Of a stretch of 64,000 nt of DNA, positions 26,326 through 46,809 are shown in pieces (within the stretch, counting starts at the first letter, position 1; each line of letters starts with the position of its first letter). A program made the position numbers and the translations under genes. The DNA is from an uncultured Planctomycetia bacterium. Lineage in GTDB: Bacteria; Omnitrophota; Gorgyraeia; B26-G9. The stretch is from assembly GCA_964437495.1 (NCBI GenBank), contig CAYTGV010000003.1, positions 17,910 to 81,909 of the forward strand. Reading direction: 5' to 3'. Below the pieces are notes generated by a model that was not told where the DNA came from, ran no database searches, and was given only the letters and a program-made list of their open reading frames with translations.

Positions 26326-26361
26326 ATGAATAGAAAATTCTACATTAAAACCTTCGGCTGA
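26326..26361 (+). pseudogene. miaB: host-derived 5' remnant of miaB (MNRKFYIKTFG then TGA) left at the left junction of the integrated element
   Basis: atgaatagaaaattctacattaaaaccttcggcTGA; FYIKTFG identical to residues 16-22 of the intact MiaB at 45508; TTCGG core 26353-26357. Confidence 0.65.
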
Positions 26362-26692
26362 CCCTTGGATTGCGCTCTACAAAGTTCTCAAACCATTCCT
26401 TTTAACTATTTTCCATCCTGAATTGACTTAATAATGCACCGCCCCGCCTTCGGCGGGGCTACTTGGGCATTGTTTAACCGTTCGCCTCAGCTAGGGCTTC
26501 GGCTCTCTGCGCACTCGCTAGGCCGCTCGCTTCGTGCTCATGCGTTACTACGATCCGGCTTTGGTCTGCCTCACTTCGCCAGAAATGGCTTCGTTTGGCA
26601 TCCCAGCGTCCTCTCCCGAGCAAAACCTCATAATTTAATGCTTATTTCTTTTTTTGGCGGCGGCGAAATATTTATTTAAAAAGGTGTGTTTT
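26362..26692 (+). repeat. GC-rich structured repeat 'a' (copy 1, element left end), about 330 bp, multiple UUCG-type hairpins
   Basis: About 90% identical to reverse complement of 36627-36966; GC content far above flanking DNA; e.g. ccgccccgccTTCGgcggggc hairpin. Confidence 0.7.
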
Positions 26693-28134: not shown

Positions 28135-28156
28135 AGTACGTAGTATACTACGTACT
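28135..28156. promoter_or_regulatory. 22-bp perfect palindrome AGTACGTAGTATACTACGTACT immediately upstream of the AbrB-like gene (candidate operator)
   Basis: Read directly; 12 bp upstream of RBS taggagg for ATG 28169. Confidence 0.5.
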
Positions 28157-28168
28157 ATAGGAGGCTTA

Positions 28169-28351
28169 ATGATGGCTAGATATAAGAAGGAAGATGGAGT
28201 GGTTAGGAAATTAACCAAAACAGGAAAATACACTTATTACGTAACAATTCCAAGAGAATATATTGCAACACTTGGATGGAGAAAAAAGCAAAAAGTATCA
28301 GTTCGGCTTTCAGGAAAGAAGATTATTATTGAGGATTGGAAGACACAATAA
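28169..28351 (+). CDS. AbrB/MazE/SpoVT-like swapped-hairpin DNA-binding protein (antitoxin-like), 60 aa
   Basis: YYVTIPREYIATLGWRKKQKVSV matches SpoVT/AbrB domain consensus (tv.IPkeir..lgi..gd.v). Confidence 0.5.
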   Translation: MMARYKKEDGVVRKLTKTGKYTYYVTIPREYIATLGWRKKQKVSVRLSGKKIIIEDWKTQ

Positions 28352-28464
28352 GCATTATTGTTGTATTTTTTGTACTTTGATTGCTCTAACTATATGAATG
28401 TTGTATAATAGATACTAACATTGTATATTTCAATAATAAAGACAATAATATTATTGAGGGAGAT

Positions 28465-28911
28465 ATGAGTATAATTGACTTAACACAACAAGAAGCAGAT
28501 GCATTAATTGCTATGGATAAAGTACGTATTAGCGATGAGCGGTATCTATTTCCTCAGCTTGGTGGTTCCTTAAGAATTCCTTTAAAATCGAAGGATGCAC
28601 GAGAGGAATTTATGCTTGATATTACCAGAGGTCAGATTAACCTTAAGAAAAATACTTTTCAAAATAGAGCACGTAAAGCAATAGTGCTAGTTAGGGTTGA
28701 TATTGATGGCCCCCCTCATTGTAATCCAGATGATAAAATAGTAGATTGCCCACATATTCATACTTATCGTGAAGGTTTTGGTGATAAATGGGCAGTCTCT
28801 TTGCCGGATTTTTTCTCGAAACCCGATGATAGTTGGACGACACTCGAAGAATTCATGAAGTATTGTAATATTTCTGATAAGCCGAATATTACTAGGGAAT
28901 TATTTATATGA
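28465..28911 (+). CDS. hypothetical protein (148 aa) with [10 protein letters not shown] motif, translationally coupled to next gene
   Basis: ORF; stop overlaps next start (ATGA). Confidence 0.4.
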
Positions 28912-29675
28912 AGGATGAAATTCAAAAATTATTAGATAATTATAATTTGTGGTTAAAAGATAGAACCGTTCTGAAACAAATTACTGATAAATGGGTTGAA
29001 ATTACTACGCCTCATCTTGATCGGCATAATGATTGTTTGCAGATTTATGTATTCAAACAAAATAATGGCTATTTAATAACAGATGATTCATATATAATTA
29101 CTGACTTAGCAAATTCAGGGTGTACTATAGATACTCCTAAGCGTCAAGAGCTTCTTAGGATGACTTTAGCTGGTTTTGGAGTGCAATTAGATGGTGATCG
29201 TTTAGTTGTTCATGCTACTTTTGAAAATTTTTCGCAAAAAAAACATAATATTATTCAGGCAATGGTGGCAGTTAATGATCTTTTTTATTTGGCGTCTCCT
29301 TATGTGTCTAGTATTTTTTATGAAGATGTTGCCAAATGGCTTGATCTTTCCGACATACGTTATACCCCTAAAGTTAAATTTACTGGTAAAACAGGGTATG
29401 ATTATATGTTTGATTTTGTAGTGCCTAAATCTAGGCAAGCACCTGAACGGATTTTACAGACAGTTAATAATCCTAAAAAAGATTCTGCTGAAGCCCTGCT
29501 TTATAGATGGATGGATACAAAGGAAACAAGACCACCAGATTCTAGATTGTATGCCTTTTTAAATGATTCCAATTTTCGTGTTTCGCAATCTGTTGTTGAT
29601 GCATTGGCAAGTTATGATGCGGTTCCTATTTTGTGGTCAAACCGTGAAGGGACACGCAAAGCATTATGTTCTTAG
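28908..29675 (+). CDS. DUF1828/DUF1829-type protein (255 aa)
   Basis: N-terminal LWLKD ... [20 protein letters not shown] resembles DUF1828 N-terminal region, C-terminal half DUF1829-like; assignment from memory of family consensus. Confidence 0.45.
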
Positions 29676-29809
29676 ATTTGTTATGATTAAAGGTCACATA
29701 TAATATCTAAAAAGAGGTCTCTTACTGCAATAAGTTGTTTTTTGAGTAGAATACGTTTACTTAATAGGTGAAAATCTAAAACTTAAATATTTTCGAAAAA
29801 GGGTATCAA

Positions 29810-32800: not shown

Positions 32801-33001
32801 GGCGGTCTACCCAGACAAACTTCAAAGACTTTATTGAAAGAACTTCAAAAAGAATTGAAAAAAGGAGTTAATCCATTAAAGATATTAGCAATTTTAAAGA
32901 TGAATATTCCTGCTGAATTTTTACAAGAAGCTGCTTTTCAAACTGCTGCTCAAATTTTCGGCCCCAGAGAAGTGATTTTATCAGAATATTTTAAAGGTTG
33001 A
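29810..33001 (+). CDS. PLD-family (HKD) nuclease domain fused to SNF2/DEAD-like helicase (1063 aa)
   Basis: N-terminal NIHAKLYIMTF ... ITGSSNFTEAG is the HxK(x)4D(x)6GSxN PLD motif. Helicase domain shows Walker A GLGKTYVSALLA, DEAH-like FIDEAHRF, motif VI MQRVGRINR, and C-terminal STEVLSEGVNLHRSNVVINYDIPWNP. Confidence 0.8.
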   Translation: MSSDLTFITNEKNKHLLDRFKVLIKDTRFFDVLVGYFYTSGFHALYKSLESTEKIRILIGISTNKETVTLFNKANYNLQPTFQFSHAEVKKEFENHVSEEMENSEDNPHVEEGVLKFIEWLKIGKLEIKAYPTQNIHAKLYIMTFTEDDRDKGRVITGSSNFTEAGLRDNLEFNVELKNRSDYDFSLQKFNELWEDAVDVKDKYIESIQTKTWLNDTITPYELYLKFLYEYFKEDLSQPEEVFYRYVPSEFMKLEYQEQAVLNAKRILDEYGGVFISDVVGLGKTYVSALLAQQLDGRTLVIAPPVLLDKCNPGSWPNVFSDFKVAADFESLGKLDSLIKRGADKYKNIFIDEAHRFRTETNMTYEKLAQICRGKRIILVTATPYNNSPKDILSQIKLFQKGRNSTIPNLPDLERFFGALGKRIKKLDRQKDYKEYISIVRNNAKEIREKVLKYLMVRRTRNEIVNHFSRDLKEQNLKFPDVADPEAIFYELNDEEDKVFTQTIELIAKKFKYSRYTPLLYYQGKITQPEELAQRNMGKFMKILLIKRLESSFFAFRNSISRFIVSYTHFLNELDKGNVYVSKKHMSKLFDLLENDDEEAIQRLIEEDKAKKYDAKDFKKDFKNDLKHDLGILLTIKRLWETVKRDPKLLAAKQKLSSRKILKEQKLIIFTESKETADYLSGHLNELYKDKVLCFSGSSSARIRERVIENFDAKARYPKDDYRILVSTEVLSEGVNLHRSNVVINYDIPWNPTRLMQRVGRINRVDTKFNKIHSFNFFPTKQSNDQIKLKEAAEGKIHAFISMLGADARLLTEGEPIESFELFNKLLSKKTITGEDEHEESELKYLQVIKEIRDKNIDLFEKVKRLPKKSRTARILKDAKNALLTYFRKGKLHKFYMVRMKTEPEELDFISAAKRLEASQSEKREKISKDLYELLEKNKQAFHHATFEEVPEIKGKGGRDTVTLVLRILKTNDIRRYKGYTEDDELYIKKVIKEVEEGGLPRQTSKTLLKELQKELKKGVNPLKILAILKMNIPAEFLQEAAFQTAAQIFGPREVILSEYFKG

Positions 33002-33005
33002 CCTA

Positions 33006-36000
33006 ATGGAAAGAAAGCAAGCAAATAAGATAGTCAAAGATACTTTTGAAAATCCCTTCAATAAAGAACAATTCGTCTATTTTATCAAAAACCTTCTTAA
33101 TCATATTGAAGAAACTCCTGGTACGCTTTATCGTGGTAATTATATTCCTGATGCTTATGCTCCTTATGTAAATACATTAGAGCGTTTAGGTAAATATTTA
33201 GATGCTGATGAACGGTCAATAGATGTATTGATAGTTAATCTTAAAAAAAATACTTCTCTAGAGCGTGCACGTACTATGCAGCGTAATTTTATTGCTTGGT
33301 ATTTGAATGGTAGTCGAGGAGGGGTATTAAAAGATGCTGCATTGGTTGCTTTTGTTTCTCCAGCACAAGAAGATTGGAGATTTTCTCTAGTAAAAATGGA
33401 GTATAGTTTAGATACCAGCGGAGAAAAGGTTAAAACAAAAAAAGAGTTAACCCCTGCCAGAAGATTTTCTTTCTTAGTTGGAAAAAATGAAAATACGCAT
33501 ACTGCCCAAAGTTACTTATCCCCTATAATAGCTGATGAGAGTAAAGATTTAAATTTAAGTAATATAGAGAATGCCTTCAGTATTGAAAAAGTAACAAAAG
33601 AATTCTTTGAAAAATATAGAGATTTATTTCTTAAATTGACAGACTCTCTAAATGAGATAGTTAAAAAAGATCAAAAAGTTAGGGCTGATTTTAAAAACAG
33701 AGGAGTAGAAACTGTAAATTTTACCAAAAAGCTTTTAGGGCAGGTAGTATTTCTTTATTTTTTGCAAAAGAAAGGTTGGTTTGGAGTAGGAAGAGATGAA
33801 GAGTGGGGAACAGGACCTAAGAATTTTTTAAGGCTTCTTTTTGAGAAAAAGATTGTTGATTATAATAATTTTTTCAATGATATTTTGGAACCATTGTTCT
33901 ATGAGGCATTAGCTACTGAAAGAGAAGATAGTTTTTATAGCAGATTTAACTGTAAAATTCCATTTTTAAATGGCGGATTATTTGATCCTATTAATAATTA
34001 CGATTGGGTTCATACCGATATTGTTTTATTAAATGATATTTTCTCAAATAAGCATAAGACAAAAGAAGGTGATGAAGGGTCAGGAATTTTAGATGTTTTT
34101 GATAGATATAATTTTACTGTTAAGGAAGATGAGCCGCTTGAAAAAGAAGTAGCCGTAGACCCTGAAATGCTTGGTAAGGTTTTTGAGAATTTATTGGAAG
34201 TAAAAGATAGAAAGTCCAAAGGTACTTATTATACTCCCAGAGAGATTGTGCACTATATGTGCCAACAAAGTTTATGCAATTATTTGGCAGAAGAGCTTAA
34301 GGAAAAAATCACAAAAGAAGAGATTGATACGCTTATAAAATACGGAGAAAGTGCTATAGAACATGATAGTAGAGTTGAAACCTATGGAAAAGAAACAAAA
34401 ACTTATTCTTTTAAACTTTCTGAGAATATTAGAAAGAATGCATCTTTAATTGATGAAAAACTTTCGGATATTCGTGTATGTGATCCTGCTGTTGGTTCTG
34501 GAGCTTTTCTCGTTGGAATGATGAACGAAATTGTTCGTGTCCGCAATGCTTTAACTACCTATTTAAGAGATAAAAAGCAAAGAACCTTTTATGATTTTAA
34601 ACGGAATGCTATCCATTATTCTCTTTATGGGGTAGATATGGATCCAGGTGCTACTGAGATAGCTAAACTTAGACTTTGGTTGTCACTTGTTGTAGATGAA
34701 GAAGATATTAAACAAATTAAACCATTGCCTAATTTGGACTATAAGATTATGCAGGGCAATAGTCTAATTGAGGATTTAGTTATTAACAATATTGTTATTA
34801 AGTTTAATCTAGATGATGTAGTTAAAGTTGATCGTCGTACCAAGAAAACAAAAGAGTTATTTAAAAAAGAAGTGCAGCATACACTTTTTAAAGATAAAAG
34901 TGAGGATATTTTTGAAGAATTAAAGAAGTTGCATTCTGTTTATTTTGAAGAGAATAATAAAAACAAGAGGTTAATTTTAAAAGAAAAGATTGTTAGTACA
35001 GAGCAGTTATTTATAACAGCAAAATGCGAAGAAGAAATAGAGCGGTTAAATGTATTTAAGAATAATTGTCGAGATAGAAAAAGAATAAGCAATGTCGAAA
35101 GTCAAATAAAAACCATTCATTCTACGCTTCGTAAATTAAAAAAAGAAGGAACAAAACCTTTTTTCTTATGGAAGCTTAATTTTTCTGAAGTTTTTATTGA
35201 TAAAGGTGGGTTTGATGTGATTGTGGGGAATCCTCCTTATGTTCAGCTTCAAAAAACTGGTGGAGAATTAGCTAATGTTTATGAGCAGTGCGATTATGTT
35301 ACTTTTTCACGGACTGGTGACATTTATACATTATTTTATGAAAAAGCTCATCGCTTGTTGCGGACTCATGGGATAGCTTGTTTGATAACTTCTAATAAAT
35401 GGATGCGGGCTGGATATGGCAAATTGATTCGTAGGTACTTTATAGATGTTGTTTCTCTTCTTATTCTTATTGATTTTGGTGATGCACCATTATTCAAGAA
35501 TGCAACAACTTATACCAATATACTTCTTTTTAAGAATATTCCACCTAGTGATTGCAGATGTTCTGTTTATGACTTAAGTAAAGAGAAAGGCGTAGAGGGT
35601 AGATTATTATATTACCTCAGGAACTTGCAAGGAAAATATATTTCCAATTTTACAGAGGTAAGTTATTTGATTGTTAATAAATATGAATTCCAAATAAAGC
35701 AGAAGGTTGAAGCTAAAGGCATACCATTAAAAAATTGGGATATTGATATTTATCGGGGTATTTTGACTGGATTCAATGAAGCTTTTATTATTAACACCGA
35801 GATAAAAGAACGTTTATGCCGGGAAGATCCTAATTGTTTAAAAATTATTAAACCTATATTGAGAGGGCGGGATGTTAAAAGGTATAAAGCGGAATTTGCT
35901 GGATTGTGGTTGATTAATACCCACAATGGTTATGATAATGAGCCTCCAGTTGATATTAATGATTATCCAGTAATTAAAGATTATTTGAAGGAGATTGAAA

Positions 36001-36530
36001 GGAAACGTGTGGCTGGCGAGTATGGAGAAAAGGCCAAAAAAGCTAAAGGATTATTTAAGCGTGATGATCAGGGCATAACACCTTATAACTTAAGAAATTG
36101 TGCATATATCCCTAGTTTAGAGTTGGGTAAGATTATTTGGGCAGAAATAGTATTTGATTCTGCATTTTATTATGATGAGGATAACTATTATCCTGAGGCA
36201 ACATGTTTTGTCATGATAGGTAATAGGTTAAAGTACTTACAGGCTCTACTAAATTCTAAATTACTAACGTTTGCATTTAGAAAGTATTATGCTGGAGGAG
36301 ATTTAAGAGGTAATACTTTTAGATACAAGAAAGTTTTTGTTGAAAAACTGCCTGTGCTACGAATTTCTGAGCGCGAACAGCAATCTTTTGGAAAAATAGT
36401 AGATAAGATAGTTGGTGATAAAAAGAAAGGTAAAGATACTCTTATTTTGGAAGAAGAAATTGATGAACTTGTGTTTGATCTCTATGCTTTGACTGCAGAA
36501 GAACGAGAACAGGTAAGGAATTCATACTAA
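33006..36530 (+). CDS. large gamma-class N6-adenine DNA methyltransferase with C-terminal target-recognition region (PglX/MmeI-like, 1174 aa)
   Basis: Motif I VCDPAVGSGAFLVG (FxGxG), motif IV VGNPPYVQ (NPPY), about 430 aa C-terminal extension; separated by 4 nt from helicase gene (operon). Confidence 0.75.
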   Translation: MERKQANKIVKDTFENPFNKEQFVYFIKNLLNHIEETPGTLYRGNYIPDAYAPYVNTLERLGKYLDADERSIDVLIVNLKKNTSLERARTMQRNFIAWYLNGSRGGVLKDAALVAFVSPAQEDWRFSLVKMEYSLDTSGEKVKTKKELTPARRFSFLVGKNENTHTAQSYLSPIIADESKDLNLSNIENAFSIEKVTKEFFEKYRDLFLKLTDSLNEIVKKDQKVRADFKNRGVETVNFTKKLLGQVVFLYFLQKKGWFGVGRDEEWGTGPKNFLRLLFEKKIVDYNNFFNDILEPLFYEALATEREDSFYSRFNCKIPFLNGGLFDPINNYDWVHTDIVLLNDIFSNKHKTKEGDEGSGILDVFDRYNFTVKEDEPLEKEVAVDPEMLGKVFENLLEVKDRKSKGTYYTPREIVHYMCQQSLCNYLAEELKEKITKEEIDTLIKYGESAIEHDSRVETYGKETKTYSFKLSENIRKNASLIDEKLSDIRVCDPAVGSGAFLVGMMNEIVRVRNALTTYLRDKKQRTFYDFKRNAIHYSLYGVDMDPGATEIAKLRLWLSLVVDEEDIKQIKPLPNLDYKIMQGNSLIEDLVINNIVIKFNLDDVVKVDRRTKKTKELFKKEVQHTLFKDKSEDIFEELKKLHSVYFEENNKNKRLILKEKIVSTEQLFITAKCEEEIERLNVFKNNCRDRKRISNVESQIKTIHSTLRKLKKEGTKPFFLWKLNFSEVFIDKGGFDVIVGNPPYVQLQKTGGELANVYEQCDYVTFSRTGDIYTLFYEKAHRLLRTHGIACLITSNKWMRAGYGKLIRRYFIDVVSLLILIDFGDAPLFKNATTYTNILLFKNIPPSDCRCSVYDLSKEKGVEGRLLYYLRNLQGKYISNFTEVSYLIVNKYEFQIKQKVEAKGIPLKNWDIDIYRGILTGFNEAFIINTEIKERLCREDPNCLKIIKPILRGRDVKRYKAEFAGLWLINTHNGYDNEPPVDINDYPVIKDYLKEIERKRVAGEYGEKAKKAKGLFKRDDQGITPYNLRNCAYIPSLELGKIIWAEIVFDSAFYYDEDNYYPEATCFVMIGNRLKYLQALLNSKLLTFAFRKYYAGGDLRGNTFRYKKVFVEKLPVLRISEREQQSFGKIVDKIVGDKKKGKDTLILEEEIDELVFDLYALTAEEREQVRNSY

Positions 36531-36626
36531 TATTCCCGCCCTTTGCAATCGCAGTCGTCCGGCTTCATCCCGATAATTCGGTATTCCGCAACGTACTTTG
36601 TGCGCTTGCCCCCCCCCTAAAGGAAA

Positions 36627-36966
36627 CAAAAACACACCTTTTTAAAAAAATATTTCGCCGCCGCCAAAAAAAGAAATAAACGTTCAATTATGAGGGTTTT
36701 GCTCGGGAGAGGACGCAGGGATGCTAAACGAAGCCATTTCTGGCGAAGTGAGGCAGACCAAAGCCGGATCGTAGTAACGCATGAGCACGAAGCGAGCGGC
36801 CCAGCGAGCGAGGCAGTGAGCCGAAGCCCCAGCTGAGGCGAACGGTGCAAACACTGCCCAAGTAGCCCCGCCGAAGGCGGGGCGGTGCATCATAAAGTCA
36901 ATTCAGGTAGGAAAACAGTAAAAAGGAATGGTTTGAGAACTTTGTAGAGTGCAATCCAAGGGTCAA
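36627..36966 (-). repeat. GC-rich repeat 'a' (copy 2, inverted)
   Basis: Reverse complement aligns base-for-base with 26362-26692, with scattered substitutions. Confidence 0.7.
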
Positions 36967-37141
36967 CCGAATGTCTTAATGTAGAAACTTTTCGGCGAAT
37001 TTTTGTAAGCCGTTGATTTTGTTGACATTGTGATTTTCTTTCTGTTTCTGAAAACAAAAAATTAAAAGGGGGGAAAAGAGAAAAAGAAATTCTTTTATGG
37101 GGTCGAGCGCCGCCGATGGCGGGGGCGATTTTGATGTTTTT
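36967..37141 (-). repeat. inverted copy of miaB promoter/5'-start segment 'r' (near-identical to 45395-45569); with repeat 'a' forms an attP-like junction
   Basis: Reverse complement of 36967-37141 is almost identical to 45395-45569, including ttctacattaagacaTTCGGttg; continues into repeat 'a' instead of miaB. Confidence 0.7.
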
Positions 37142-37142
37142 C

Positions 37143-37318
37143 GTCTTGCTCTCGCTAATGTCTCGCAATCCGTCACACATCTCCCTAGATGTGCGTTAAA
37201 AAGCAGAAAAAAAGAAAAACCCCCACCCACCCGAAAATTGTCTCTGTGCTCGGACTTCTACGCCTCTGGCGTATTCGTTCCCTGCGCTCAGAGCCAATTT
37301 GTTCCCCCTAAAAATGGA
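37143..37318 (+). repeat. repeat 'b' (copy 2), followed by TTGACA...TAAAGT promoter of second island operon
   Basis: Similarity to 26738-26852 (gtcttgctNtcg ... ccccacccacccg ... cctgcgctcagagcc). Confidence 0.5.
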
Positions 37319-37319
37319 G

Positions 37320-37348
37320 CTTGACAAAATATGACAAAATGTGTAAAG
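37320..37348 (+). promoter_or_regulatory. sigma70-like promoter TTGACA-N17-TAAAGT, about 10 nt before ATG 37359 (near-leaderless)
   Basis: ttgacaaaatatgacaaaatgtgtaaagt read directly. Confidence 0.45.
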
Positions 37349-37358
37349 TGGGTTCACT

Positions 37359-37541
37359 ATGGAAAAACGATATAATTTAAGCAAAGCGGCAAAAGAATTA
37401 GGCATCACTCGCCAAGGTCTTTATTACTGGATAAAGAAAGGGTGGGTTACGCCTAAACGTGATTTTAAGAATCATCCTGTTTTTACGGATGCTGATTTGA
37501 AAAAGATTAAAGGGTGGATGAATAAATTAAAGGATTCCTGA
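37359..37541 (+). CDS. excisionase/AlpA-like HTH DNA-binding protein (candidate recombination directionality factor or regulator), 60 aa
   Basis: LSKAAKELGITRQGLYYWIKKGWV helix-turn-helix of excisionase-type; first gene of second island operon. Confidence 0.5.
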   Translation: MEKRYNLSKAAKELGITRQGLYYWIKKGWVTPKRDFKNHPVFTDADLKKIKGWMNKLKDS

Positions 37542-37543
37542 TT

Positions 37544-39148
37544 ATGAATATTGAAATCTTTATTGGGTTCTTAGGGCTTTTGATTACGATGTATGCTATT
37601 GCCCCAGAGGTGGTCAAGGCTAGGGTTCATGCTTTTATTAATCCATTGCTGTTTAAAATCGCGATACCTTTATATATAGTTGTATCTTTGTGCGTTCTTT
37701 ATTTTGAGCATTATTACTTAGATGATGTTTTAATGTGTGAAGTTTTATTTTGGGCAAAATATCTTTCTTATTGTGGGATATTCTTGTTAATATGGTTTAT
37801 CTATACATCTTTGAGAGATAGAAAGCTGGGGAAATCAAATATTGAAAGGTTTTATAAATTCCTAAAAGTTCTTTTGTCAAAGCAGCAGTTTTCAATATTA
37901 ATTGATATATTACATGGTAGTCTTAAATACATACTTCCATTATATAATGTTCAAGCAAAACCTGAAAAGTGTAAGAAATTAAAAAATACCATTATGGTTG
38001 GCGGCAAGGTTATTCCTTTTCCAGTTTTTCCATCTGATTCTTTTGAGACAGAGATTTCAAAAAAGATATTTAGAGACGTAATTTTTAACGAATCGTTCAT
38101 AAGGGCAAATATTCATTATGGGAAAAATTTTTCTATTGATTTTATAAGTGGTTGTAGAAAAAATAAAATACACATAAGTGATTATTCGGACTTGTTTCTT
38201 TATGAGCTTTTAAAAAACAAAGACTCTTTCCTCTATCAAGAATTAAAAGAAACGCTTACAGTCTATTCTCCAAGTAACGATGAATTTGATAGGTTTCCAT
38301 TTTTACATGTATTATTTGAGGATATTAAATACTTTAATGAACAGGGATTTTATAGAGGAATAGGGGAGTATGTCATTGAATTTGTTGATAGAAATATTGA
38401 CAGTAATAATGAGCGATATAGCCGTAGTACTAAATATTATTGGGATCAACGTGAGCGAGATGGTAAATACAAATGTCCTGTTTATATGGGACTTAGTTAT
38501 TTTACATATATGGTGAACAAGGCTATACGTGAGAATATTCAAAGCCATATGTGGCTTTTGTATGTTCATTATTGGGTTAAAGCGATATGTAAGAAAATGG
38601 TTTACTATGAAGATGAATGGCAGGGGGGCGGTGAGTTTCCTACAATTTACTGTTATTTGCTTTATGAGCTGCTTGGTATCCATGGCAATTGGGTTAAGCA
38701 TATATATGAAGTTTCAAGCGAGGAACAACATGGTAGTTCTTTTCAGCAGGACGATAAATCAATTGATATAAGTGAGGAAAGGGAGTTAATTTTAGAATGG
38801 ATACTTAAGGATATGCTTTATTGTGCTGATAGTATCGCGCAATGTGAAGCCATCCCCTATGATAAGCGTGTGTACTTACTTAAAACGTTTATGGGTGTAA
38901 ATATTGGGATAAAAAGCAACTTTTCTCAATACGGGAAAGCTTGTATTGCAAAAGCCACCAATTTAAATAAAGTTATTAGTATATATATAGATGAGTTTGA
39001 AAAAAGAATACGTAACAAGAATTACTCAAAAGCTTTTAACGAAGATTTAAAAAATGCGTGTCAAGATGCATTAGAATCAATGGATACAATTCCTTTAGAC
39101 AGTAATATTGTTAGATTTTGGAAGGGCTGGCTCAGTGGATTACAGTAA
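37544..39148 (+). CDS. membrane-anchored protein of unknown function (534 aa; 3 N-terminal TM helices + large cytoplasmic domain)
   Basis: Hydrophobic segments at residues about 5-20, 40-55, 75-90; no recognisable catalytic motif; start 3 nt after HTH gene stop. Confidence 0.4.
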   Translation: MNIEIFIGFLGLLITMYAIAPEVVKARVHAFINPLLFKIAIPLYIVVSLCVLYFEHYYLDDVLMCEVLFWAKYLSYCGIFLLIWFIYTSLRDRKLGKSNIERFYKFLKVLLSKQQFSILIDILHGSLKYILPLYNVQAKPEKCKKLKNTIMVGGKVIPFPVFPSDSFETEISKKIFRDVIFNESFIRANIHYGKNFSIDFISGCRKNKIHISDYSDLFLYELLKNKDSFLYQELKETLTVYSPSNDEFDRFPFLHVLFEDIKYFNEQGFYRGIGEYVIEFVDRNIDSNNERYSRSTKYYWDQRERDGKYKCPVYMGLSYFTYMVNKAIRENIQSHMWLLYVHYWVKAICKKMVYYEDEWQGGGEFPTIYCYLLYELLGIHGNWVKHIYEVSSEEQHGSSFQQDDKSIDISEERELILEWILKDMLYCADSIAQCEAIPYDKRVYLLKTFMGVNIGIKSNFSQYGKACIAKATNLNKVISIYIDEFEKRIRNKNYSKAFNEDLKNACQDALESMDTIPLDSNIVRFWKGWLSGLQ

Positions 39149-39267
39149 ATTATGAAAGTATCAATTTGTATAAGAGTTTCAACTGGAGACCAAGTTAAAG
39201 AGAGGTTACTCTAAGAAATCTAAATAGGTTGTTTTGAGGGCGTTGTTATTATTAAGATTTAAAATTT

Positions 39268-40149
39268 ATGAGAAATATAAATAGATATTTTTGTCGAGCA
39301 TTAGATTCCAATAACACATTTTCGCCAAGTGTTCATTGGGAGCATTGTCTTTTGTTAGAAAAGGCAATGTTGGATATATTACAATATATTCCCATACATG
39401 ATGGGATGCCGGATGAGAATTGGAAAGTTAGCAGTCCAAAATTAATAGATATATTTGTCAAGTCATGCTTCCTTTTTGAAGCGGCATTTAAAGGTATTTC
39501 AAATGAACCAACGGATCGTATTGTCAACTATCTTAAACAAAATGCATATGTATGGAGTGAATATTTTCTTGATGGAAAAAATCGCAACGGCAAATGTAAA
39601 GAATTAGATATTTGCGATTTTTTAACCTTTTATGACGCGTATTGTTCCTTGAACTTCTTAGAAGCAAGAATCAGATGTTCTCAAAATATTAGTGACGTTT
39701 GGGTAAATAAAATGACTGTAATTCGTCCATTTTTTAATATGAAACTCGAAAATAATGTAGTAATTAAATCCCCTGATTGGTGGAAAAAATACACACAAAT
39801 TAAACATAATTTTTATTCCTATCCACAAGAAATTAATTTGGAAGCTACAATTGAAGCTTTAGCTGCATTGATATCTTTCACCGCAGTTGTTCCTCAGATG
39901 CGTCGATTACTCTGCGATCATGGGTACATACAGGATAATTTTAAAAAACCTTTTGATATTGAAAAAATCGGACGAAAAATTAATGATAAATTTGTTAAGG
40001 ACCCTTGGGTTAACCATAAAAAAATGTTCTTCGAGGAATATGATGATATTGATACGATGCCCGCTATTGCATGTGTATCAGATTTATTTATAGTACCTTT
40101 TGTAGGCGATTATAGAAAAGCTAGATTATGGTCGGGGATAGGAAAATAA
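39268..40149 (+). CDS. hypothetical protein (293 aa), no recognised domain
   Basis: ORF in operon context; Cys/His-rich, W-rich C-terminal region. Confidence 0.35.
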   Translation: MRNINRYFCRALDSNNTFSPSVHWEHCLLLEKAMLDILQYIPIHDGMPDENWKVSSPKLIDIFVKSCFLFEAAFKGISNEPTDRIVNYLKQNAYVWSEYFLDGKNRNGKCKELDICDFLTFYDAYCSLNFLEARIRCSQNISDVWVNKMTVIRPFFNMKLENNVVIKSPDWWKKYTQIKHNFYSYPQEINLEATIEALAALISFTAVVPQMRRLLCDHGYIQDNFKKPFDIEKIGRKINDKFVKDPWVNHKKMFFEEYDDIDTMPAIACVSDLFIVPFVGDYRKARLWSGIGK

Positions 40150-40154
40150 GAGTT

Positions 40155-40246
40155 GATAAAACCAGAAAGAGATTATAGTACTTTTCCGGTGTTTACAAAT
40201 GCTGATTTAAAGAAAATTAAAAGGTGGAAAGATAAAATTAAATAAA
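40155..40246 (+). pseudogene. 3'-end remnant of a second copy of the excisionase-like HTH gene (ELIKPERDYSTFPVFTNADLKKIKRWKDKIK then stop)
   Basis: Translation aligns with C-terminus of 37359 gene (GWVTPKRDFKNHPVFTDADLKKIKGWMNKLK); no start codon or HTH portion. Confidence 0.5.
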
Positions 40247-40268
40247 GAGGTGTTAAGGACTTAATAAT

Positions 40269-41060
40269 ATGGCACATTTAACTACTAATGAAAAACAAAT
40301 TCTTGAGAAGCTCTTTCAACTGGGAGGGGGCTATGTTTTGAATTTTTCTGATAGAACCATGGGGGAGTTTTTTAAAGACGATGTTGGTATTGATATATAC
40401 GATGAAAAGTATAATTATGCCAGTGGTTCAAAGGCTAATCGTATGCGTGGATTTTGGCGTGAGGCAAATAATGCAATAGTTAGCGCCTCGATTATTAAAT
40501 TAGTTGAGTATCTTAAAAACCAGATGCTTTTAGGCGAATTGAAAGAGAAAGAATTTCCTGAAAAATTATTACAGCGTGCTTTACAAATAGCGAGTAAATT
40601 AGCCGCAAATGATAACAAGAATGTGGTTTTTACAGTAAAGCCAATCAAAACACTTGTAGCCCAACTTCAAGAAGCTAAATTAAAAGATGGTAAAATTACT
40701 ATAACTTTACACAAGAAAGTTTTTGACCACGTTCAAAGCCTTCTGTCTGATGGACACTACTTTAATGCAGTTGAAGAAGCATATAAAATCGTTAGAAATA
40801 AATTGCGCGATGTTAGCGGTAGCGAGAGGGCAACGGATGCTTTTAAAGAGGCTAACTATGAGCGTATTTTTGGTCATAATCCGGCAAATCAAGCGGAAAA
40901 AGATTTTTATGAAGGAGTAAAATTTTTACATATGGCTATACAGTTTTTAAGGAATGAAAAAGCTCATACACCAGCATATGATTTAGATAAAAATTTGGCA
41001 ATTCATTATATAGCACTAGCTAGCTTGGCGTATGATTTGGTTGATAGGCAAAAGAAGTAA
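40269..41060 (+). CDS. HEPN-domain protein of the TIGR02391-like family (263 aa)
   Basis: C-terminal FLRNEKAHTP (R-x4-H HEPN motif) within GHYFNAVEEAYKIVRNKLRD ... context typical of TIGR02391/Abi-associated HEPN. Confidence 0.5.
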   Translation: MAHLTTNEKQILEKLFQLGGGYVLNFSDRTMGEFFKDDVGIDIYDEKYNYASGSKANRMRGFWREANNAIVSASIIKLVEYLKNQMLLGELKEKEFPEKLLQRALQIASKLAANDNKNVVFTVKPIKTLVAQLQEAKLKDGKITITLHKKVFDHVQSLLSDGHYFNAVEEAYKIVRNKLRDVSGSERATDAFKEANYERIFGHNPANQAEKDFYEGVKFLHMAIQFLRNEKAHTPAYDLDKNLAIHYIALASLAYDLVDRQKK

Positions 41061-41144
41061 ATATCTATTGCAATTATCCTGTATTTACAGAACTAGATTT
41101 TTTAAAAATTAAAATTTGGGAAAAGAAACTAAAAGAGGTGTGAT

Positions 41145-43916
41145 ATGAATTGTTTGACAGGTTCATTGTGGCGTAAATGGGATTTGCATGTGCATGCTCC
41201 GGGAACAAAACTTAATGATGGATATAAGGTTGAAGATGGAAAAAATGTCTGGGATGATTTCTGCAAAATTGTAGAAGAATCTGATGTTGAGGTTTTTGCT
41301 ATTACGGATTATTTTTCAACTGATGTATATAAAACTTTTAAAATTGAGTATCAAAAAAGATATCCAGAATCAAGAAAAAAGTTCTTTTTGAACATTGAAC
41401 TTAAACTTAATGAGTCAGTAAATAGTAAATCAGAAGAAATTAATTTACATTTAATCTTTAATCCATTATCCGCTGATAAGGCTGACGATTTCTTGAGTAA
41501 TTTGAAGCTTGTAAAAACAGGGAAAGATGGAATCTCAATAAAGTGTTCAGACTTAAATTCAGTTGATGACTATAAATCGGCAACTGTTACAAGAGATTTT
41601 ATCGAATTTGCATTTCAGGAGACCTTTGGAAAGAAAGCTATTCGGCAAGATCATTTTCTTATTTTTACAGCTGCTAATAATGAGGGGATTCGTCCTGAAA
41701 AAGGTAAAAAGAGAAAAGAAATTATAAGTGATGAAGTTGATAAATTTAGCGATGTTTTTTTGGGAGGGGCGCAAAATGTAGTGTATTTTTTGGGAGAGGA
41801 TAGGCTTGAAGATAATGAACAGAAAATAATCAAAAAACCTGTTGTCTCAGGTAGTGATTGTCATTCCTTTCAAGATTTAAATGCATTTCTTGGGAAGAGG
41901 GTTATTAAAAATATTGATGGGAAAGAAATAATTATAAAAGATATCACTTGGATAAAGGCAAATCCAACCTTTGAAGGTTTAAAACAGATAATTTATGAGC
42001 CAGAGCCTGGAGAACGGGTTTATATCGGCACACTCGAACCTGATAGGAAAAATGATTTTCAAATAATACGAAAAATAAGGTTTGAAAATTCAACTGATTT
42101 TCCTACTGAAATTTATTTCAACAATAACCTTTGCTCTATTATTGGCAGTAGATCTACTGGTAAATCGGCGTTACTTGCATATATAGCGCATTCTATAGAT
42201 AAAGATTTAGCTGAAATGCTGAGGCCTGGCCCAGGAGATGGGGATGATTACCATTGGGATAAAATTGATATTGATTGTTTTGTGGAGTGGGGGAATGGAA
42301 TTTCTTCTAATGATGCTAAGTGAAAGGTAGTTTATATACCGCAAAATTATCTACTTGATAAAAGTAAAGATTCAGAAGAGATAAAGAATAAGATTGAACC
42401 GGTATTGTTTAAAAAATTTACTGAGTTCAAACTGCGATATGAGCAGGCGAAAAAACAGATAGCTGATTGTAATGCTAATATTTCTGATTATGTGAATACT
42501 TGGATTAAATTAGCAGATGCAATTTGTTCGTTTGCAAAAAGTCTAAAAGACTTAGGGGATAAAGAAGGAATTAAGAAAGAAAATAAAAATACTGAAATAA
42601 AAATAGAAGAGCTTAAAAAAAAGTATCAGTTAAGTGAAAGTGATGTTAAAAAATATAAAGAGATAAGTTCTGACTTATCTATGTATGAAGTAAATATCAA
42701 AGAAAGGGAAAAAGAGCTTGCTCAAATTGGTAGTGAAGGGGAAATAGATCAATTTTTTTCATCATTAAACTGGACTTTTGTTCCAAATATCGAAAGTTTG
42801 CCACAGAAGTTGCAAGATGTAATTAAAAAAGAAATGGAAGATGTTGACAACGGAATTCTAAAAAAAGCAAATGAACTAGTTGTTAAATATAAAATTAAGC
42901 TAGATAAAGATATAGATGATTCTGAAAAAGCAATCATCGGAATTAAAAGTGTTAATAATATCTTAATTGAAAAATATCAGAAAAATATTGAGCTCAATGC
43001 GCTTATCAAGAAAATAGAGGGGCTTAATAAGAACTTGCAAACTATAGAATCATTAGAGAAAGAGATAAATATAAAAAGAGTGTTATTGGGTGAATGTCAA
43101 AAAAACATTGATATAGAAATAAGCAAAAGAGAGGATCAATTTAAACAGCTTAAGGAAGATCTTGAAGCTAAAGATCAAAAAGGAGCCGATATAGAATTTA
43201 ATATTGAATATGGATTAAATCCTGGAGATGTGGAAAGGGTTGCAAAAAAAATAAATTTAAAGGAAAGATCCGATTTCGTTGAAAAAAACGAATTAAAAGT
43301 AGATGACATAAGAAAAAAATCAAACGAATTTTTAAAAGCAATTTATTTTGGAAAGCAAAAAATAAATTCAGGTAATATAAAGAAAGATGTTATAGAAGAT
43401 ACGCTAACGTTGACCGAGAATATTTTATTTGCTGCTAAAATGGAAGGGGATCGGATAGGAGGCTTTCTTGAAACTACCATGACTCCTGGCAGGCGAGCTC
43501 TTTTTCTTTTAAGATTGATTCTGGACGAATCAGATGATGCTTGGCCTATTCTCATTGATCAGCCAGAAGATAATTTAGATAGTAGATCTATTGCTAAGGA
43601 AATAGTTCCATTTTTTAAAGGCAGGAAAAAAGAAAGACAAATAATTATGGCTAGTCATAATGCAAATCTCGCAATTGGAGCAGATTCAGAACAAATCATT
43701 GTAGCAAATAGACATGGACAAGATAAGCCAAATTTAGATGGAAAGCAGTTTAATTATTTAACAGGTGGTATCGAAAACACAAAAGAGAAGTCTGAAAAAA
43801 TCAAGGACACGCTAGGATCTCAAGGTATTCGAGAACATGCATGTGAAATATTAGATGGTGGAAAAGAGGCTTTTGAATACAGAAGAAACAAGTATAATTT
43901 TAAAAAGAGATATTGA
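41145..43916 (+). pseudogene. PHP-domain + SMC/ABC-type ATPase (Ppl/PplA-like single-gene defence protein) interrupted by one in-frame TGA (42321-42323)
   Basis: N-terminal WDLHVHAPGT...DG PHP motif. Walker A GSRSTGKSALLAYI. After the stop comes a long coiled-coil, then Walker B/D-loop ILIDQPEDNLD and H-loop MASHNANL. ORFs 41145-42323 and 42405-43916 are in the same frame with no other stop between them. Confidence 0.6.
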
Positions 43917-43918
43917 AA

Positions 43919-45580
43919 ATGCAAGTTGCTTTATATATTAGAGTTTCTACCGAAGATCAAGCAAAAGAGGGATATTCTCTTGAAGTCCAAAGAGAATATC
44001 TTGAATCTTTTGCTAAGCGCGAATGCTTTGAAGTTTTTAAAATCTATTGTGATGAGGGGATAAGTGCCTACTCTACTAGACGAGAAGCGTTACAGCAATT
44101 AATAAAGGATTCTAAGGATAAAAAGTTTGATCTTGTGCTTGTTTATAAAATAGACCGCTTTAGTCGTAAGCTAAAAGACCTTTTAAATTTGGTTGATGAG
44201 TTGTCTTCTTATGGTGTTGGCTTTAAGTCTGCAACTGAGCCTTTCGATAGCACAACATCAGCAGGAAAGTTGATGTTTCAGCAATTAGGTTCCTTTGCAG
44301 AGTTTGAGCGAAATCGTATTTCTGAGAGAGTATTCCCTGGAATGGTTAAAGGTGTTCAACAAGGCAATTGGCAGGGAGCGAGGTTTTCACCGTTTGGCTA
44401 TACTTACAATAAAGAAAAAAAGCTATTAGAAGTTGAGCCTCGGGAAGCGGATATTGTTAAGTTGATTTATACAATGTATCTAACTGGCAAAAGCACGCAT
44501 GAGATTGCTGAGTATTTGAATAAGAAAAAATATCAAACTAGGACAGGAAAACAATTTTATACTAAATTTATAGGTGATATTTTAAAGAATAGAATTTATA
44601 CAGGGAAGATCGTTTGGAATAAAAAGCATTATGATAAAAATCAAAAAACAAAGAAGCATTATAAATATATTAAAAATGATGCTTCAAAAATTATAATTGC
44701 TCAAGGCAAGCATGCTCCAATAATTGATGAGCAGGATTTTGAAGCAGTACAGAAGTTATTAGCTGAAAAGAAAAGAACATGGCGGCCAAGAGTAAAAAAT
44801 AAAGAGTATCTTTTAACTGGTTTGCTTACTTGTACGAAATGTAATCATAAATACAATGGAGTATCATCAATATCAAATCATAGAACTAATAAAAAGAAAC
44901 GATGGTATCGTTGCTCAGGGCCTTATGCTAATCATATTAGATGTACAAATGGATCAGTCAAGGCAGAGGATATTGAACCGGAAGTTACAAAGATTGTGGC
45001 TCAGTTGATTCAAAATGATAGGTTAAAACAGAGCCGATGGATGAGCGGGACTTTGCCAAAAAGCGCAAATTTTCCCAATTTTGGCAAAAATACCAAAATT
45101 GACGCATCTAAACTTAAAAATAAGCTTGAAGATAACCAAAGAAAGCAGTCAAAACTAACAGACGCTTATTTGGAAAATTTGCTTGGAGAAGATGTGTTTC
45201 GTGGTAAGATAGAACAACTTCGCAAGGAAGAGGATGAACTAAAGATAATCCTTGCAGGATATGAACTTAGGGAGATTGAAAGCGAAAGATCAGAAGGGTA
45301 TATTAACAGAGTAAAAGACTTTTTGGATGGGCATGACGAGGCTAAGTCAGCAATAGATTTTGCTACCAAGAAAGCGATGTGCGGACTGCTTTTTAAAAAC
45401 ATCAAAATCGCCCCCGCCATCGGCGGCGCTCGACCCCATAAAAGAATTTCTTTTTCTCTTTTCCCCCCTTTTAATTTTTTGTTTTCAGAAACAGAAAGAA
45501 AATCACAATGTCAACAAAATCAACGGCTTACAAAAATTCGCCGAAAAGTTTCTACATTAAGACATTCGGTTGCCAGATGA
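43919..45580 (+). CDS. large serine recombinase (integrase) of the integrated element
   Basis: N-terminal resolvase catalytic domain with catalytic-Ser context YIRVSTEDQ...DRFSR. Followed by recombinase domain and Cys-rich zinc-ribbon LTCTKCNHKYNG...RCSGP and coiled-coil. The ORF 3' end runs into the att/miaB-promoter repeat and overlaps miaB start. Confidence 0.85.
   Translation: MQVALYIRVSTEDQAKEGYSLEVQREYLESFAKRECFEVFKIYCDEGISAYSTRREALQQLIKDSKDKKFDLVLVYKIDRFSRKLKDLLNLVDELSSYGVGFKSATEPFDSTTSAGKLMFQQLGSFAEFERNRISERVFPGMVKGVQQGNWQGARFSPFGYTYNKEKKLLEVEPREADIVKLIYTMYLTGKSTHEIAEYLNKKKYQTRTGKQFYTKFIGDILKNRIYTGKIVWNKKHYDKNQKTKKHYKYIKNDASKIIIAQGKHAPIIDEQDFEAVQKLLAEKKRTWRPRVKNKEYLLTGLLTCTKCNHKYNGVSSISNHRTNKKKRWYRCSGPYANHIRCTNGSVKAEDIEPEVTKIVAQLIQNDRLKQSRWMSGTLPKSANFPNFGKNTKIDASKLKNKLEDNQRKQSKLTDAYLENLLGEDVFRGKIEQLRKEEDELKIILAGYELREIESERSEGYINRVKDFLDGHDEAKSAIDFATKKAMCGLLFKNIKIAPAIGGARPHKRISFSLFPPFNFLFSETERKSQCQQNQRLTKIRRKVSTLRHSVAR
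45395..45569 (+). repeat. element right end 'r': replacement promoter + first 20 codons for miaB, ending at attR core TTCGG
   Basis: Near-identical inverted copy at 36967-37141. Confidence 0.7.
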
Positions 45581-46809
45581 ATGACCGCGATTCTGAGCTT
45601 GTTGCCGGGCTTTTGATCAAAAAAGGCTATAAACTTGCGGACTCTATTGAAGGCGCGGATATTATTCTGTTTAATACCTGCAGCGTCAGACAAAGGGCTG
45701 AGGATAAGGTCTGGTCTGCGATTGGGAAGCTGAAAAAGCTTAGGACTACAGACCACAGACCACAGACCACAGTTAAAAGCAAAAAAAAAGAATCTATTAA
45801 CTATAGACCATTGACCATTGACCATCGACCAATTATTGGCCTCATTGGCTGTATGGCCCAGGAATGGCAGCAGGCAGTGTTTAATAAGACTCCCTTGGTA
45901 GACCTGGTGGTCGGTCCGAACAATATTTCAGCTATCCCTGGGCTATTAGATGACATGCAAACATCTAATGCAAAAGGCCTGGCTGTCGGAGCTGATCAAA
46001 GAGATGCAAAAGTGTATAATACAGAATATATTGGAGAGATTTCCCATTGTAATGTTAATATAATGGAGGGATGTAATAATTTCTGCTCATACTGTATCGT
46101 GCCGTATGTCAGGGGCAGGGAAAGCAGTCGTCCGGCTGAGGATATTATAAAAGAAATAAAGGCCTTGGTAAAAAAGGGAGTAAAGGAAATAACGCTTTTG
46201 GGGCAGAATGTCAATAGCTACAACAGCGCATCTGTAATTACAAATGACAAATTACAAATGACAAATAAAAAACAAAAGGATGTAGGGGGGGGGCTTGCCT
46301 CCTCCCGTAATAAAAAAACATTCACTGATTTATTGAAAATGGTTAATGATATTAAGGGGATAGAAAGATTTGACTTTGTGACCTCTAATCCTAAAGATGC
46401 CAATACGAAACTGTTCAAGACCATGGCTGAACTGACAAAATGTAAAAGGTTTTTACATTTGCCAGCACAGTCCGGCTCTGATAGAATATTAAAGAAGATG
46501 GGCCGCGGTTATACGCGCAGTAAATATCTGGGGCTTATTAAAAAAGCAAGGCAGATAATGCCTGATCTGAGGATGACTACAGATATTATGGTCGGCTTTC
46601 CGGGTGAGACAAAAAAGGATTTTGAAGATACATTTGATCTAATGAAACAGGTGCAGTTCAGTGCGGCATATATTTTTAAATATTCGCCGCGGCCGTTTAC
46701 CAAGGCTGCTAAAATGGAAGATGATGTTTCTCAAAATGAAAAAAAGCGCAGAAACCAAATATTGCTTGAATACCAGAGAAGTCTACATAAAAAAAGAAAG
46801 CAATTATGA
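45508..46809 (+). CDS. miaB: tRNA-i6A37 methylthiotransferase MiaB (radical SAM MTTase) with two in-frame low-complexity insertions
   Basis: FYIKTFGCQMND MTTase N-terminal, CxxxCxxC radical-SAM (CNNFCSYCIVP), C-terminal TRAM; insertions at about 45745-45840 and about 46228-46318. Confidence 0.9.
   Translation: MSTKSTAYKNSPKSFYIKTFGCQMNDRDSELVAGLLIKKGYKLADSIEGADIILFNTCSVRQRAEDKVWSAIGKLKKLRTTDHRPQTTVKSKKKESINYRPLTIDHRPIIGLIGCMAQEWQQAVFNKTPLVDLVVGPNNISAIPGLLDDMQTSNAKGLAVGADQRDAKVYNTEYIGEISHCNVNIMEGCNNFCSYCIVPYVRGRESSRPAEDIIKEIKALVKKGVKEITLLGQNVNSYNSASVITNDKLQMTNKKQKDVGGGLASSRNKKTFTDLLKMVNDIKGIERFDFVTSNPKDANTKLFKTMAELTKCKRFLHLPAQSGSDRILKKMGRGYTRSKYLGLIKKARQIMPDLRMTTDIMVGFPGETKKDFEDTFDLMKQVQFSAAYIFKYSPRPFTKAAKMEDDVSQNEKKRRNQILLEYQRSLHKKRKQL
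45750..45833 (+). repeat. in-frame heptanucleotide microsatellites inside miaB ((gaccaca)x3 and (gaccatt)x3-4)
   Basis: actacagaccacagaccacagaccacag ... ctatagaccattgaccattgaccatcgacca read directly. Confidence 0.7.

Follow-up and report, generated by a model that had tools for sequence, protein, structure and literature searches.

Probably independent passenger genes, rather than one three-gene system, in a large serine recombinase cassette at a MiaB-like gene of an Omnitrophota genome

Elements of the staphylococcal cassette chromosome type (SCC, SCCmec) are driven by large serine recombinases (LSRs) and integrate, without disrupting it, at the end of a conserved housekeeping gene. They carry variable accessory cargo, pile up side by side, and decay into composites in which junctions are left over. 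Inversion of DNA segments is known from the Gin/Hin/Pin proteins, which are small invertases working on short repeats (~26–34 bp), and embedding of a defence gene within type I restriction-modification (RM) loci is known from PrrC, a soluble ATPase-anticodon nuclease. Here we compare with these systems a locus from an uncultured bacterium of the Omnitrophota, contained in 64,000 nt of assembly GCA_964437495.1 (contig CAYTGV010000003.1, positions 17,910 to 81,909; this whole stretch is hereafter called the window, and all positions refer to it). At 37359–40149, the window has genes for a 60-aa helix-turn-helix (HTH) protein, a 534-aa membrane protein and a 293-aa protein, which a first-pass annotation of this DNA had taken for one system, a membrane-tethered effector with its partner. 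The explanation that we find best overall, and hold to be probable, is that the three genes are real but unrelated passengers in a mobile LSR cassette; that the 534-aa and 293-aa genes in particular are independent cargo of such a cassette appears highly probable.

The locus resembles SCC in that LSR-driven units are stacked at one housekeeping gene, with variable cargo and decayed junctions. It differs in targeting a MiaB-like gene of Omnitrophota at its 5' end, in having ~180-nt near-perfect inverted repeats that hold the recombinase's own 3' end, and in having a small HTH gene as part of the backbone. The cargo is also of another kind, being of defence type here and consisting of resistance genes in SCC.

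All three open reading frames (ORFs) are present on the + strand as annotated, namely the HTH gene (37359..37541), which is the first gene of the cassette, the 534-aa gene (37544..39148) and the 293-aa gene (39268..40149). The tight packing ascribed to them applies to the first two, although the gap between these is 2 nt (TGA-TT-ATG) and not 3 nt; it does not apply to the 293-aa gene, which starts 119 nt downstream. The promoter TTGACA-N17-TAAAGT is found at 37321–37349, inside a leader, L (37142..37358, +), and its -10 element finishes 9 nt upstream of the HTH start codon. The bare consensus occurs 24 times versus 17.8 ± 4.7 times in shuffled sequence, no more than chance would give in DNA so rich in AT. 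In front of 18 HTH homologues with diverged flanks, we found TTGAC(A/T)-N17-(G)TAAA(G/A)T followed after ~9–11 nt by ATG, and because motif and spacing have been kept there despite the divergence around them, we accept the promoter as real and the transcript as leaderless or nearly so. L-like sequence is found in other loci, and the HTH promoter region contains repeated GTAAAGT motifs.

Were the HTH, 534-aa and 293-aa genes to form a single abortive-infection system, they would supply its regulator, its membrane-tethered effector and its soluble partner or sensor, respectively. The shared orientation of the genes, the 2-nt gap between the first two, the single conserved promoter, the lack of a convincing terminator between them and the location in a defence island are all in line with this proposal. 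We nevertheless consider it highly improbable. The 534-aa and 293-aa families occur together in this genome only: the pair was found in none of the six loci with close homologues of the 534-aa protein, in none of 71 distant loci of that family, and in none of seven contexts of the 293-aa family. Furthermore, a 5' remnant of a recombinase gene lies between the two genes, and the HTH gene precedes dozens of unrelated genes elsewhere, pointing to a component of the cassette backbone and not of a system formed with any one cargo gene.

The remnant encodes MKVSICIRVSTGDQVKE (39152..39202, +) and begins 3 nt past the stop codon of the 534-aa gene. In a search of 21 kb, it was 65% identical to residues 3–19 of the resident recombinase, including the RVST catalytic-serine motif (E 0.014). 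Two further remnants, both of the HTH 3' end, lie between the cargo genes downstream. One of 29 codons (40156..40242, +; 59% identical to HTH residues 30–58, E 7e-10) stands just before a gene for a 263-aa Hypoth_Ymh (TIGR02391) protein (40269..41060, +; Pfam 1.6e-16, NCBIfam 2e-31), a separate cargo whose product contains RNEKAH. The other, of 22 codons (41072..41137, +; 59% identical to HTH residues 38–59, E 9e-6), stands just before a gene for a TrlF-family (Ppl-like) AAA-type ATPase (41145..43916, +). The latter is broken by a single in-frame TGA (42321–42323) into ORFs of 392 aa (41145–42323) and 503 aa (42405–43916), with the same frame continuing past the stop (KVVYIPQNYL...). Against the NCBIfam model TrlF_fam_ATP (NF045780), whose cut-off is 350 bits, the halves score 227 and 217 bits separately, such that no single protein passes; as one in-frame TGA is all that separates them, the gene is a member of the family, though an interrupted one, and the TGA is probably a recent nonsense mutation. 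Literature searches on TrlF returned nothing relevant.

Read along the sequence, the array thus consists of a unit of HTH, 534-aa gene and recombinase stub, followed by the 293-aa gene, an HTH stub with the Ymh gene, another HTH stub with the interrupted TrlF gene and, finally, the functional recombinase (555 aa; 43913..45580, +). With three recombinase and HTH stubs between the cargo genes, these genes must have been joined by fusion of separate cassettes, which makes passengers of the 534-aa and 293-aa genes that are independent of each other. The stubs are best read as fossils of earlier cassettes, and the simplest origin for them is that separate cassettes came to lie in tandem and then underwent internal deletions. 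Related loci contain several of these units in less complex form. An HTH gene, a gene for a 539-aa homologue of the 534-aa protein and a recombinase gene make up a minimal version of the first unit in L091, and L006 has the repeat, the leader, a gene for a 540-aa homologue, the recombinase and the MiaB-like gene, with neither an HTH nor a 293-aa gene. In L096 the cargo begins with a Ymh homologue, and an intact TrlF homologue of 995 aa directly follows the HTH gene in L090.

To characterize the slot between HTH and recombinase more generally, we scanned 50 ORFs from the slots of related loci, with hits not assigned to individual loci. Cargo in related cassettes is mostly of defence type, and the matches of this kind included AbiTii, RhuM/PDC-S05, DUF3644, DUF4143/AAA_14, UvrD-type helicases, EC042_2821, AEP-TOTE primase, CAP12/Pycsar TIR, DUF4238, CHAT and the PADLOC candidates PDC-S01, S19 and S23. 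A few ORFs were plainly of non-defence type (transporters), possibly contributed by loci in which the HTH gene is present more than once.

The location of the genes in a recombinase-associated, low-GC defence island, as first proposed, was borne out: GC content is 30–35% from ~27 kb to 45.5 kb and 36–42% outside. A perfect 178-nt inverted repeat, found by a repeat search at 36964–37141 and 45395–45572, encloses exactly the block from HTH to recombinase, giving a cassette of 8.6 kb from repeat to repeat (36964–45572). The right repeat (+ strand) makes up the last ~178 nt of the recombinase gene, and the left repeat (36964..37141, - strand) is a reverse copy of that 3' end plus an attachment core, translating to recombinase residues 495–553. 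Three-way alignment showed that the 23-nt core, TTCTACATTAARACMTTCGGYTG, is common to 26338 (+), 36964 (-) and 45550 (+). The first of these copies (26338–26360) marks the left boundary of the island, and the last (45550–45572) ends the right repeat.

The same core lies within the target gene. The sequence at 26326..26360 (+), which ends in the left core, encodes MNRKFYIKTFG; when joined to the sequence from 45573 onward it yields MNRKFYIKTFGCQMNDRDSE, and this rebuilt N-terminus matches the intact MiaB-like N-termini of other genomes. Because joining the flanks rebuilds the canonical MiaB-like N-terminus, the ~19 kb from 26361 to ~45572 represent inserted DNA. The island splits the host MiaB-like gene at codon 12, and the element restores the 5' end of the gene by means of a replacement start codon at 45508 in the right repeat, resulting in a restored gene for a radical-SAM methylthiotransferase (45508..46809, +; UPF0004, Radical_SAM). 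The orphaned native 5' end and the region upstream of it now point into the island. The gene order MiaB-like, TPR/SPOR, MiaA is kept in related loci. The whole insert thus comprises, in an Omnitrophota genome, the 8.6-kb cassette plus a second block of 10 kb (26361–36963). A housekeeping protein encoded in the window falls into one cluster at ≥90% identity with a protein of a Candidatus Omnitrophota MAG. With an LSR that has Resolvase, Recombinase and Zn-ribbon (Zn_ribbon_recom) domains, a target split at the core and a target ORF that is restored, the insert has the makeup of an integrative element driven by such a recombinase. No tRNA or tmRNA genes were found in the window.

Inverted repeats of this length raise the question of whether the cassette inverts. 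Within a locus the two arms are nearly identical, not only in the window but also in L099 (99.5% over 182 nt), L101 (98.3% over 178 nt), and L094 and L112 (100%, both truncated loci), while from locus to locus the arm sequence is only 74–86% identical; hence, the arms are kept alike inside each genome. This similarity of the arms in four related loci suggests ongoing inversion or gene conversion. In addition, two loci have the opposite orientation to that of the window and L101: in L096 the MiaB-like gene lies beside the HTH end, and in L094 the GC-rich element R, described below, lies beside the recombinase end, with both orientations known from different genomes and not from within one population. 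We infer from these comparisons that the cassette inverts or has inverted repeatedly in the past.

An alternative explanation would be that the cassette does not invert at all, the repeats being without function and, like the stubs, static scars or artefacts of assembly. In its favour, attP-type and attR-type sites are not a substrate pair of canonical LSR integrases, and repeats are easily mishandled by short-read assemblers. On the other hand, the junctions between arms and interior are reproduced in an independent k141 assembly, in which a contig of 8535 nt runs through the cassette and stops exactly 141 nt inside each of the two arms, as a genuine repeat exceeding k would be expected to make it do. 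The recurrence of a design with 98–100% identical arms in four diverged loci and the two orientations seen among relatives also speak against static scars, and we regard this explanation as unlikely.

The cassette shares with the Gin/Hin/Pin systems a segment flanked by inverted repeats, a serine recombinase at the locus, both orientations among relatives and a link to phage defence; for PinQ, inversion of cryptic-prophage DNA is described in one report as affecting adsorption of phage T2 (PMC12529663). In contrast to those systems, a 555-aa LSR is encoded within the segment, the arms measure 178 nt, and the cargo promoter also lies between them. Flipping the segment would therefore leave the on/off state of the cargo unchanged.

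The HTH protein had been labelled excisionase-like. The HTH part of this label stands, since the protein passes the Pfam cut-offs for MerR_1 (28.9 bits, cut-off 21.6) and HTH_8 (29.6, cut-off 22), but with 17.6 bits against a cut-off of 27 it stays below the threshold for the excisionase family HTH_17, making the label a loose one. The 60-aa protein is a MerR-type HTH that, judged from its sequence, lacks the dimerisation and effector region found in MerR regulators of full length, and the 55 members of its 90% cluster are from Omnitrophota and annotated as MerR-family. A metagenome scan yielded 80 loci with HTH homologues, of which 32 also have the recombinase and 21 the MiaB-like gene, the latter often preceding the same TPR/SPOR and MiaA genes. 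The recombinase gene follows the HTH gene after 5–25 nt in seven loci, and in 23 loci there are one to three unrelated genes between them, the first of which starts a few nucleotides past the HTH stop codon. With dozens of loci thus having either unrelated cargo or directly the recombinase after the HTH gene, we consider this gene part of the backbone.

In 12 loci the HTH gene is upstream of the MiaB-like gene with no intervening recombinase, and in nine it is directly adjacent (~100–175 nt). Such loci may reflect a host role of the HTH protein or may be decayed cassettes. HTH homologues that are 50–60% identical stand before intact MiaB-like genes in L139, L148, L151, L152, L155, L132, L146, L153 and L160, and two or three HTH copies with other genes between them occur in L140, L142, L155 and L157. 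We did not adopt the view that the HTH gene is nothing more than a host gene at the MiaB locus, given that it lies inside the repeats, is tightly linked with the recombinase gene in numerous loci and is represented by stubs before stacked cargo. As a cassette component, the HTH protein is probably a regulator of the operon of cargo and recombinase; alternatively, it is possibly a directionality factor.

A small HTH gene at the head of an operon is also reminiscent of MADS, and residues 1–51 of the HTH protein indeed match the PADLOC mad1 profile (E 1.2e-9). The difference is that the HTH gene co-varies with the recombinase and not with any one defence system. No match to mad3–mad8 was found among ten proteins scanned, the type IIG enzyme of the second block matches mad2 weakly and type IIG models far more strongly, and literature searches on MADS and mad1 returned nothing relevant. 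We rejected a MADS system, of which only the mad1-like HTH would be present.

Turning to the cargo itself, three N-terminal transmembrane (TM) helices had been assigned to the 534-aa protein, and a hydropathy scan, which places hydrophobic helices at residues 3–21, 35–53 and 68–86, and an AlphaFold2 (AF2) model concur with this assignment. The remainder of the model is all-alpha (pLDDT 68.8, pTM 0.59) and corresponds to a cytoplasmic domain of ~440 aa. Basic residues follow helices 1 and 3 and acidic residues follow helix 2, from which the positive-inside rule would predict an N-out, C-in topology.

The first-pass annotation had also recognised no catalytic motif in the 534-aa protein and no match for the 293-aa protein, and our searches of Pfam, NCBIfam and PADLOC gave no match for either. 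Specifically, the 534-aa protein has no NCBIfam match and no family in PADLOC-DB 2.0 at E ≤ 0.01, 40 diverse members of its family match nothing in Pfam except for one chance Tetraspanin match, and no PDB chain is matched by sequence at E ≤ 1. The sole library match is to phrog_13820 (E 7.5e-26; protein residues 82–397 against positions 91–387 of a 505-position profile), a PHROG whose function is not annotated. Foldseek searches of PDB and BFVD with the AF2 models resulted in generic helical-repeat matches only. A second 534-aa ORF in the window (19083–20687) was considered as a paralogue and rejected, as it does not match the hidden Markov model of the family.

Among 5.8 billion clustered proteins there are only eight full-length close homologues (50–100% identity), and the alignment of this close family (A1) recovers no locus in GTDB representative genomes or IMG/VR. 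A profile search of 1.84 billion representatives reveals a much larger family, with 499 clusters (50% identity) at E ≤ 1e-3, of which 342 reach E ≤ 1e-10. Its members are mostly 480–620 aa long, and most have two or three N-terminal hydrophobic helices. Across 140 members S228, Y231, E233, G274, N293, P312, F320 and M323 are conserved, as are H335-M-W-L-x-Y340, E364-x-P366, W383 and D514. With a sub-alignment (A4) as query we obtained 73 loci in GTDB representative genomes, spanning Pseudomonadota, Acidobacteriota, Bacteroidota, Elusimicrobiota, cyanobacteria, haloarchaea and methanogens.

The neighbourhoods of these genes are mixed. When the flanking ORFs of 71 distant loci were clustered, no neighbour family occurred in more than five loci, and among the nearest large neighbours are type I S and R subunits, type IIG enzymes, N6_N4 methylases, Mrr, AbiU2 and mad5-like proteins as well as housekeeping genes. 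In the six loci with 50–82% identical homologues, the recombinase is the only other family common to any of them; the contexts of close homologues are likewise rich in defence genes and contain two GmrSD genes and methylases (L001), FRG, AAA_13, RmuC and reverse transcriptase genes (L004), or a DUF8426-Mrr gene and an integrase (L005). A DUF8426 protein is encoded near the 534-aa homologue in two of the six close loci (L004, 5496–6020; L005, 5387–6373, fused to Mrr_cat), which may be coincidence or a loose association. In three Bacteroidota loci (L073, L080, L081) the family gene comes right after hsdS, with a 14-nt overlap, and L073 has an hsdR-like gene further downstream. Distant members are also found at the end of E. 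coli Stx1a/Stx2c prophages, convergent with the integrase (517 aa; L169, 3407–4960, LC727877.1), and on Klebsiella and E. coli phage-plasmids (L170, 5911–7500, E. coli plasmid CP056250.1). Of 5426 complete E. coli genomes, 35 (RefSeq) contain the prophage copy, which is annotated as 'hypothetical protein', as is the plasmid copy.

The 534-aa family might serve mobile elements or a general membrane function, for example entry or surface exclusion of related elements, maintenance or addiction, or membrane stress, and be an island hitch-hiker with no anti-phage role. Consistent with this idea, the family is carried by prophages, phage-plasmids, conjugative plasmids and LSR cassettes, it lacks the domains usual in defence proteins, such as those of nucleases or NTPases, and many of the genes that flank it are housekeeping genes. 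Yet its members are also found inside type I RM operons and beside Mrr, GmrSD, RmuC and AbiU2, far from obvious mobile backbones, and the slot that is occupied here otherwise holds recognised defence genes. We therefore consider a purely mobile-element or general membrane role rather unlikely and lean, by a modest degree, towards an anti-phage function of the family. That the protein acts specifically by membrane damage in abortive infection is a more tentative proposition, which we would not favour at present.

The position right after hsdS in Bacteroidota is the classic place of an embedded abortive-infection gene, and in this respect the distant family members are similar to PrrC; they differ from it in being membrane-anchored and in having no nuclease or NTPase motif, and the copy in the window lies outside a type I locus. 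Single-gene membrane abortive-infection and exclusion proteins and the TM effectors of CBASS and Pycsar likewise share with the 534-aa protein TM helices at the N-terminus, occurrence as solo genes and a place in prophages and defence islands; their sequences do not match it. However, the CBASS and Pycsar TM effectors are short, and the large conserved helical cytoplasmic domain of the 534-aa protein has no counterpart in them.

The 293-aa protein belongs to a far smaller family, with 17–19 clusters in 5.8 billion proteins, and a profile search for distant relatives added only two proteins. The protein has no Pfam or NCBIfam match and no PADLOC family at E ≤ 0.01. In the seven other contexts in which the family was found there is no 534-aa homologue. 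The homologue overlaps the stop codon of a type IIG enzyme gene in L008 (4782–4785) and that of a ResIII protein gene in L167 (8001–8004), an arrangement that suggests translational coupling to restriction enzymes in these two loci. In L007 it lies ~2 kb downstream of a type IIG enzyme, in L009 it adjoins an MNT/HEPN-type toxin-antitoxin pair, and in L168 and on the contig of P0022 the neighbours are unremarkable. A conserved gene downstream of the homologues was looked for, and the ~300-aa neighbours in L007, L008 and L167 proved unrelated to each other. In the model of the 293-aa protein (pLDDT 66, pTM 0.68), the N-terminal half is helical and predicted with confidence, and the C-terminal part is predicted poorly; the only fold matches at TM ~0.5 are to the HEPN toxin 7ae8 and are non-significant (E ~4, probability 0.15). 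The invariant motif of the family is K179-H180, and there is no invariant Rx4-6H.

The second block of the insert (27013–36530) has no HTH or recombinase gene of its own. It contains genes for an HKD-SNF2 helicase (PADLOC C3a139; 29810–33001) and a type IIG restriction-modification enzyme (33006–36530), the latter separated from the HTH gene by a GC-rich gap of 830 nt. We also noted genes for DUF1016_N (YhcG-like), DUF6978 and DUF1828/DUF1829 proteins and a possible MazE-like ORF of 60 aa in this block. The helicase and type IIG genes are enclosed by a second set of inverted repeats (26338–26692 and 36629–36986, 82–94% identical), which consists of the core and a GC-rich non-coding element of ~330 nt. 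One copy of this element, R' (26361..26692, +), lies directly inside the left island boundary and is 82–94% complementary to 36629–36986; the inverted second copy, R (36629..36963, -), lies outside the left repeat of the cassette. The conserved part of R, ~215–250 nt at 26434–26648 (+) and 36674–36890 (-), is situated beside the attachment core, and R-like elements are conserved in nine other loci, including L092, L094, L099, L102, L107, L112, L119 and L166. In the consensus fold of R we observed compensatory changes at 9 of 23 pairs, versus 3.1 ± 1.2 in shuffles, and its G-U pairs favour the strand running from the core into R. Neither the window nor R has a match in Rfam. The element may be a structured RNA of a new type or an accessory element of the recombination site.

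Several observations weigh against parts of our interpretation. The 2-nt gap implies joint expression of the HTH and 534-aa genes in this locus, which makes a regulatory link between them real here. HTH homologues that directly precede intact MiaB-like genes in loci without recombinase indicate that the protein may have a host role too. The case for active inversion is built on arm homogenisation and locus comparison rather than on reads. As to function, no known homologue ties either the 534-aa or the 293-aa protein to phage defence, and the roles we propose are putative; the Foldseek matches are generic and the AF2 models of moderate quality (pLDDT 66–69); many of the nearest neighbours in the wider 534-aa family are ordinary housekeeping genes, although RM, Mrr and AbiU2 genes are among them as well; and the association of this family with defence genes is an enrichment seen by eye and not a statistic.

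With unrelated passengers in an LSR cassette as our preferred interpretation, a plausible course of events would be as follows. The HTH protein would autoregulate its own leaderless promoter, by repressing or tuning it, and would thereby control expression of cargo and recombinase. The 534-aa protein would sit in the inner membrane and act alone, its helical cytoplasmic domain serving as an infection sensor or interaction module, while exclusion or abortive infection would be executed by its three membrane helices or at a partner site on the membrane. The 293-aa protein would be a separate accessory or defence factor, perhaps an adjunct to restriction. Taken together, these elements might describe a self-inverting HTH-LSR docking platform that collects defence genes at a MiaB-like gene, with R at its attachment site and the 534-aa family as a new class of single-protein, membrane-anchored immunity; by analogy, this would be an integron-like strategy, proceeding cassette by cassette, that is run by a large serine recombinase. 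As a joint claim this is speculative, and we think it improbable that all of its parts hold at once.

Our analysis removes a false lead, in that 37359–40149 does not contain a three-gene system, and in its place draws attention to the individual genes and their carrier. The cassette illustrates how a defence island can be assembled: units of HTH, cargo and recombinase stack at one housekeeping gene, their backbones decay, and readable stubs remain. The 293-aa protein is a rare orphan that is often encoded directly behind restriction enzymes elsewhere. The 534-aa family, by comparison, comprises ~500 clusters, ranges from Omnitrophota to haloarchaea and the Stx prophages of E. coli O157, and is nameless in every library that we searched. 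Its genes occur solo, in variable, defence-rich or mobile positions, making a stand-alone anti-phage gene plausible, and the copy in E. coli makes the family cheaply testable.

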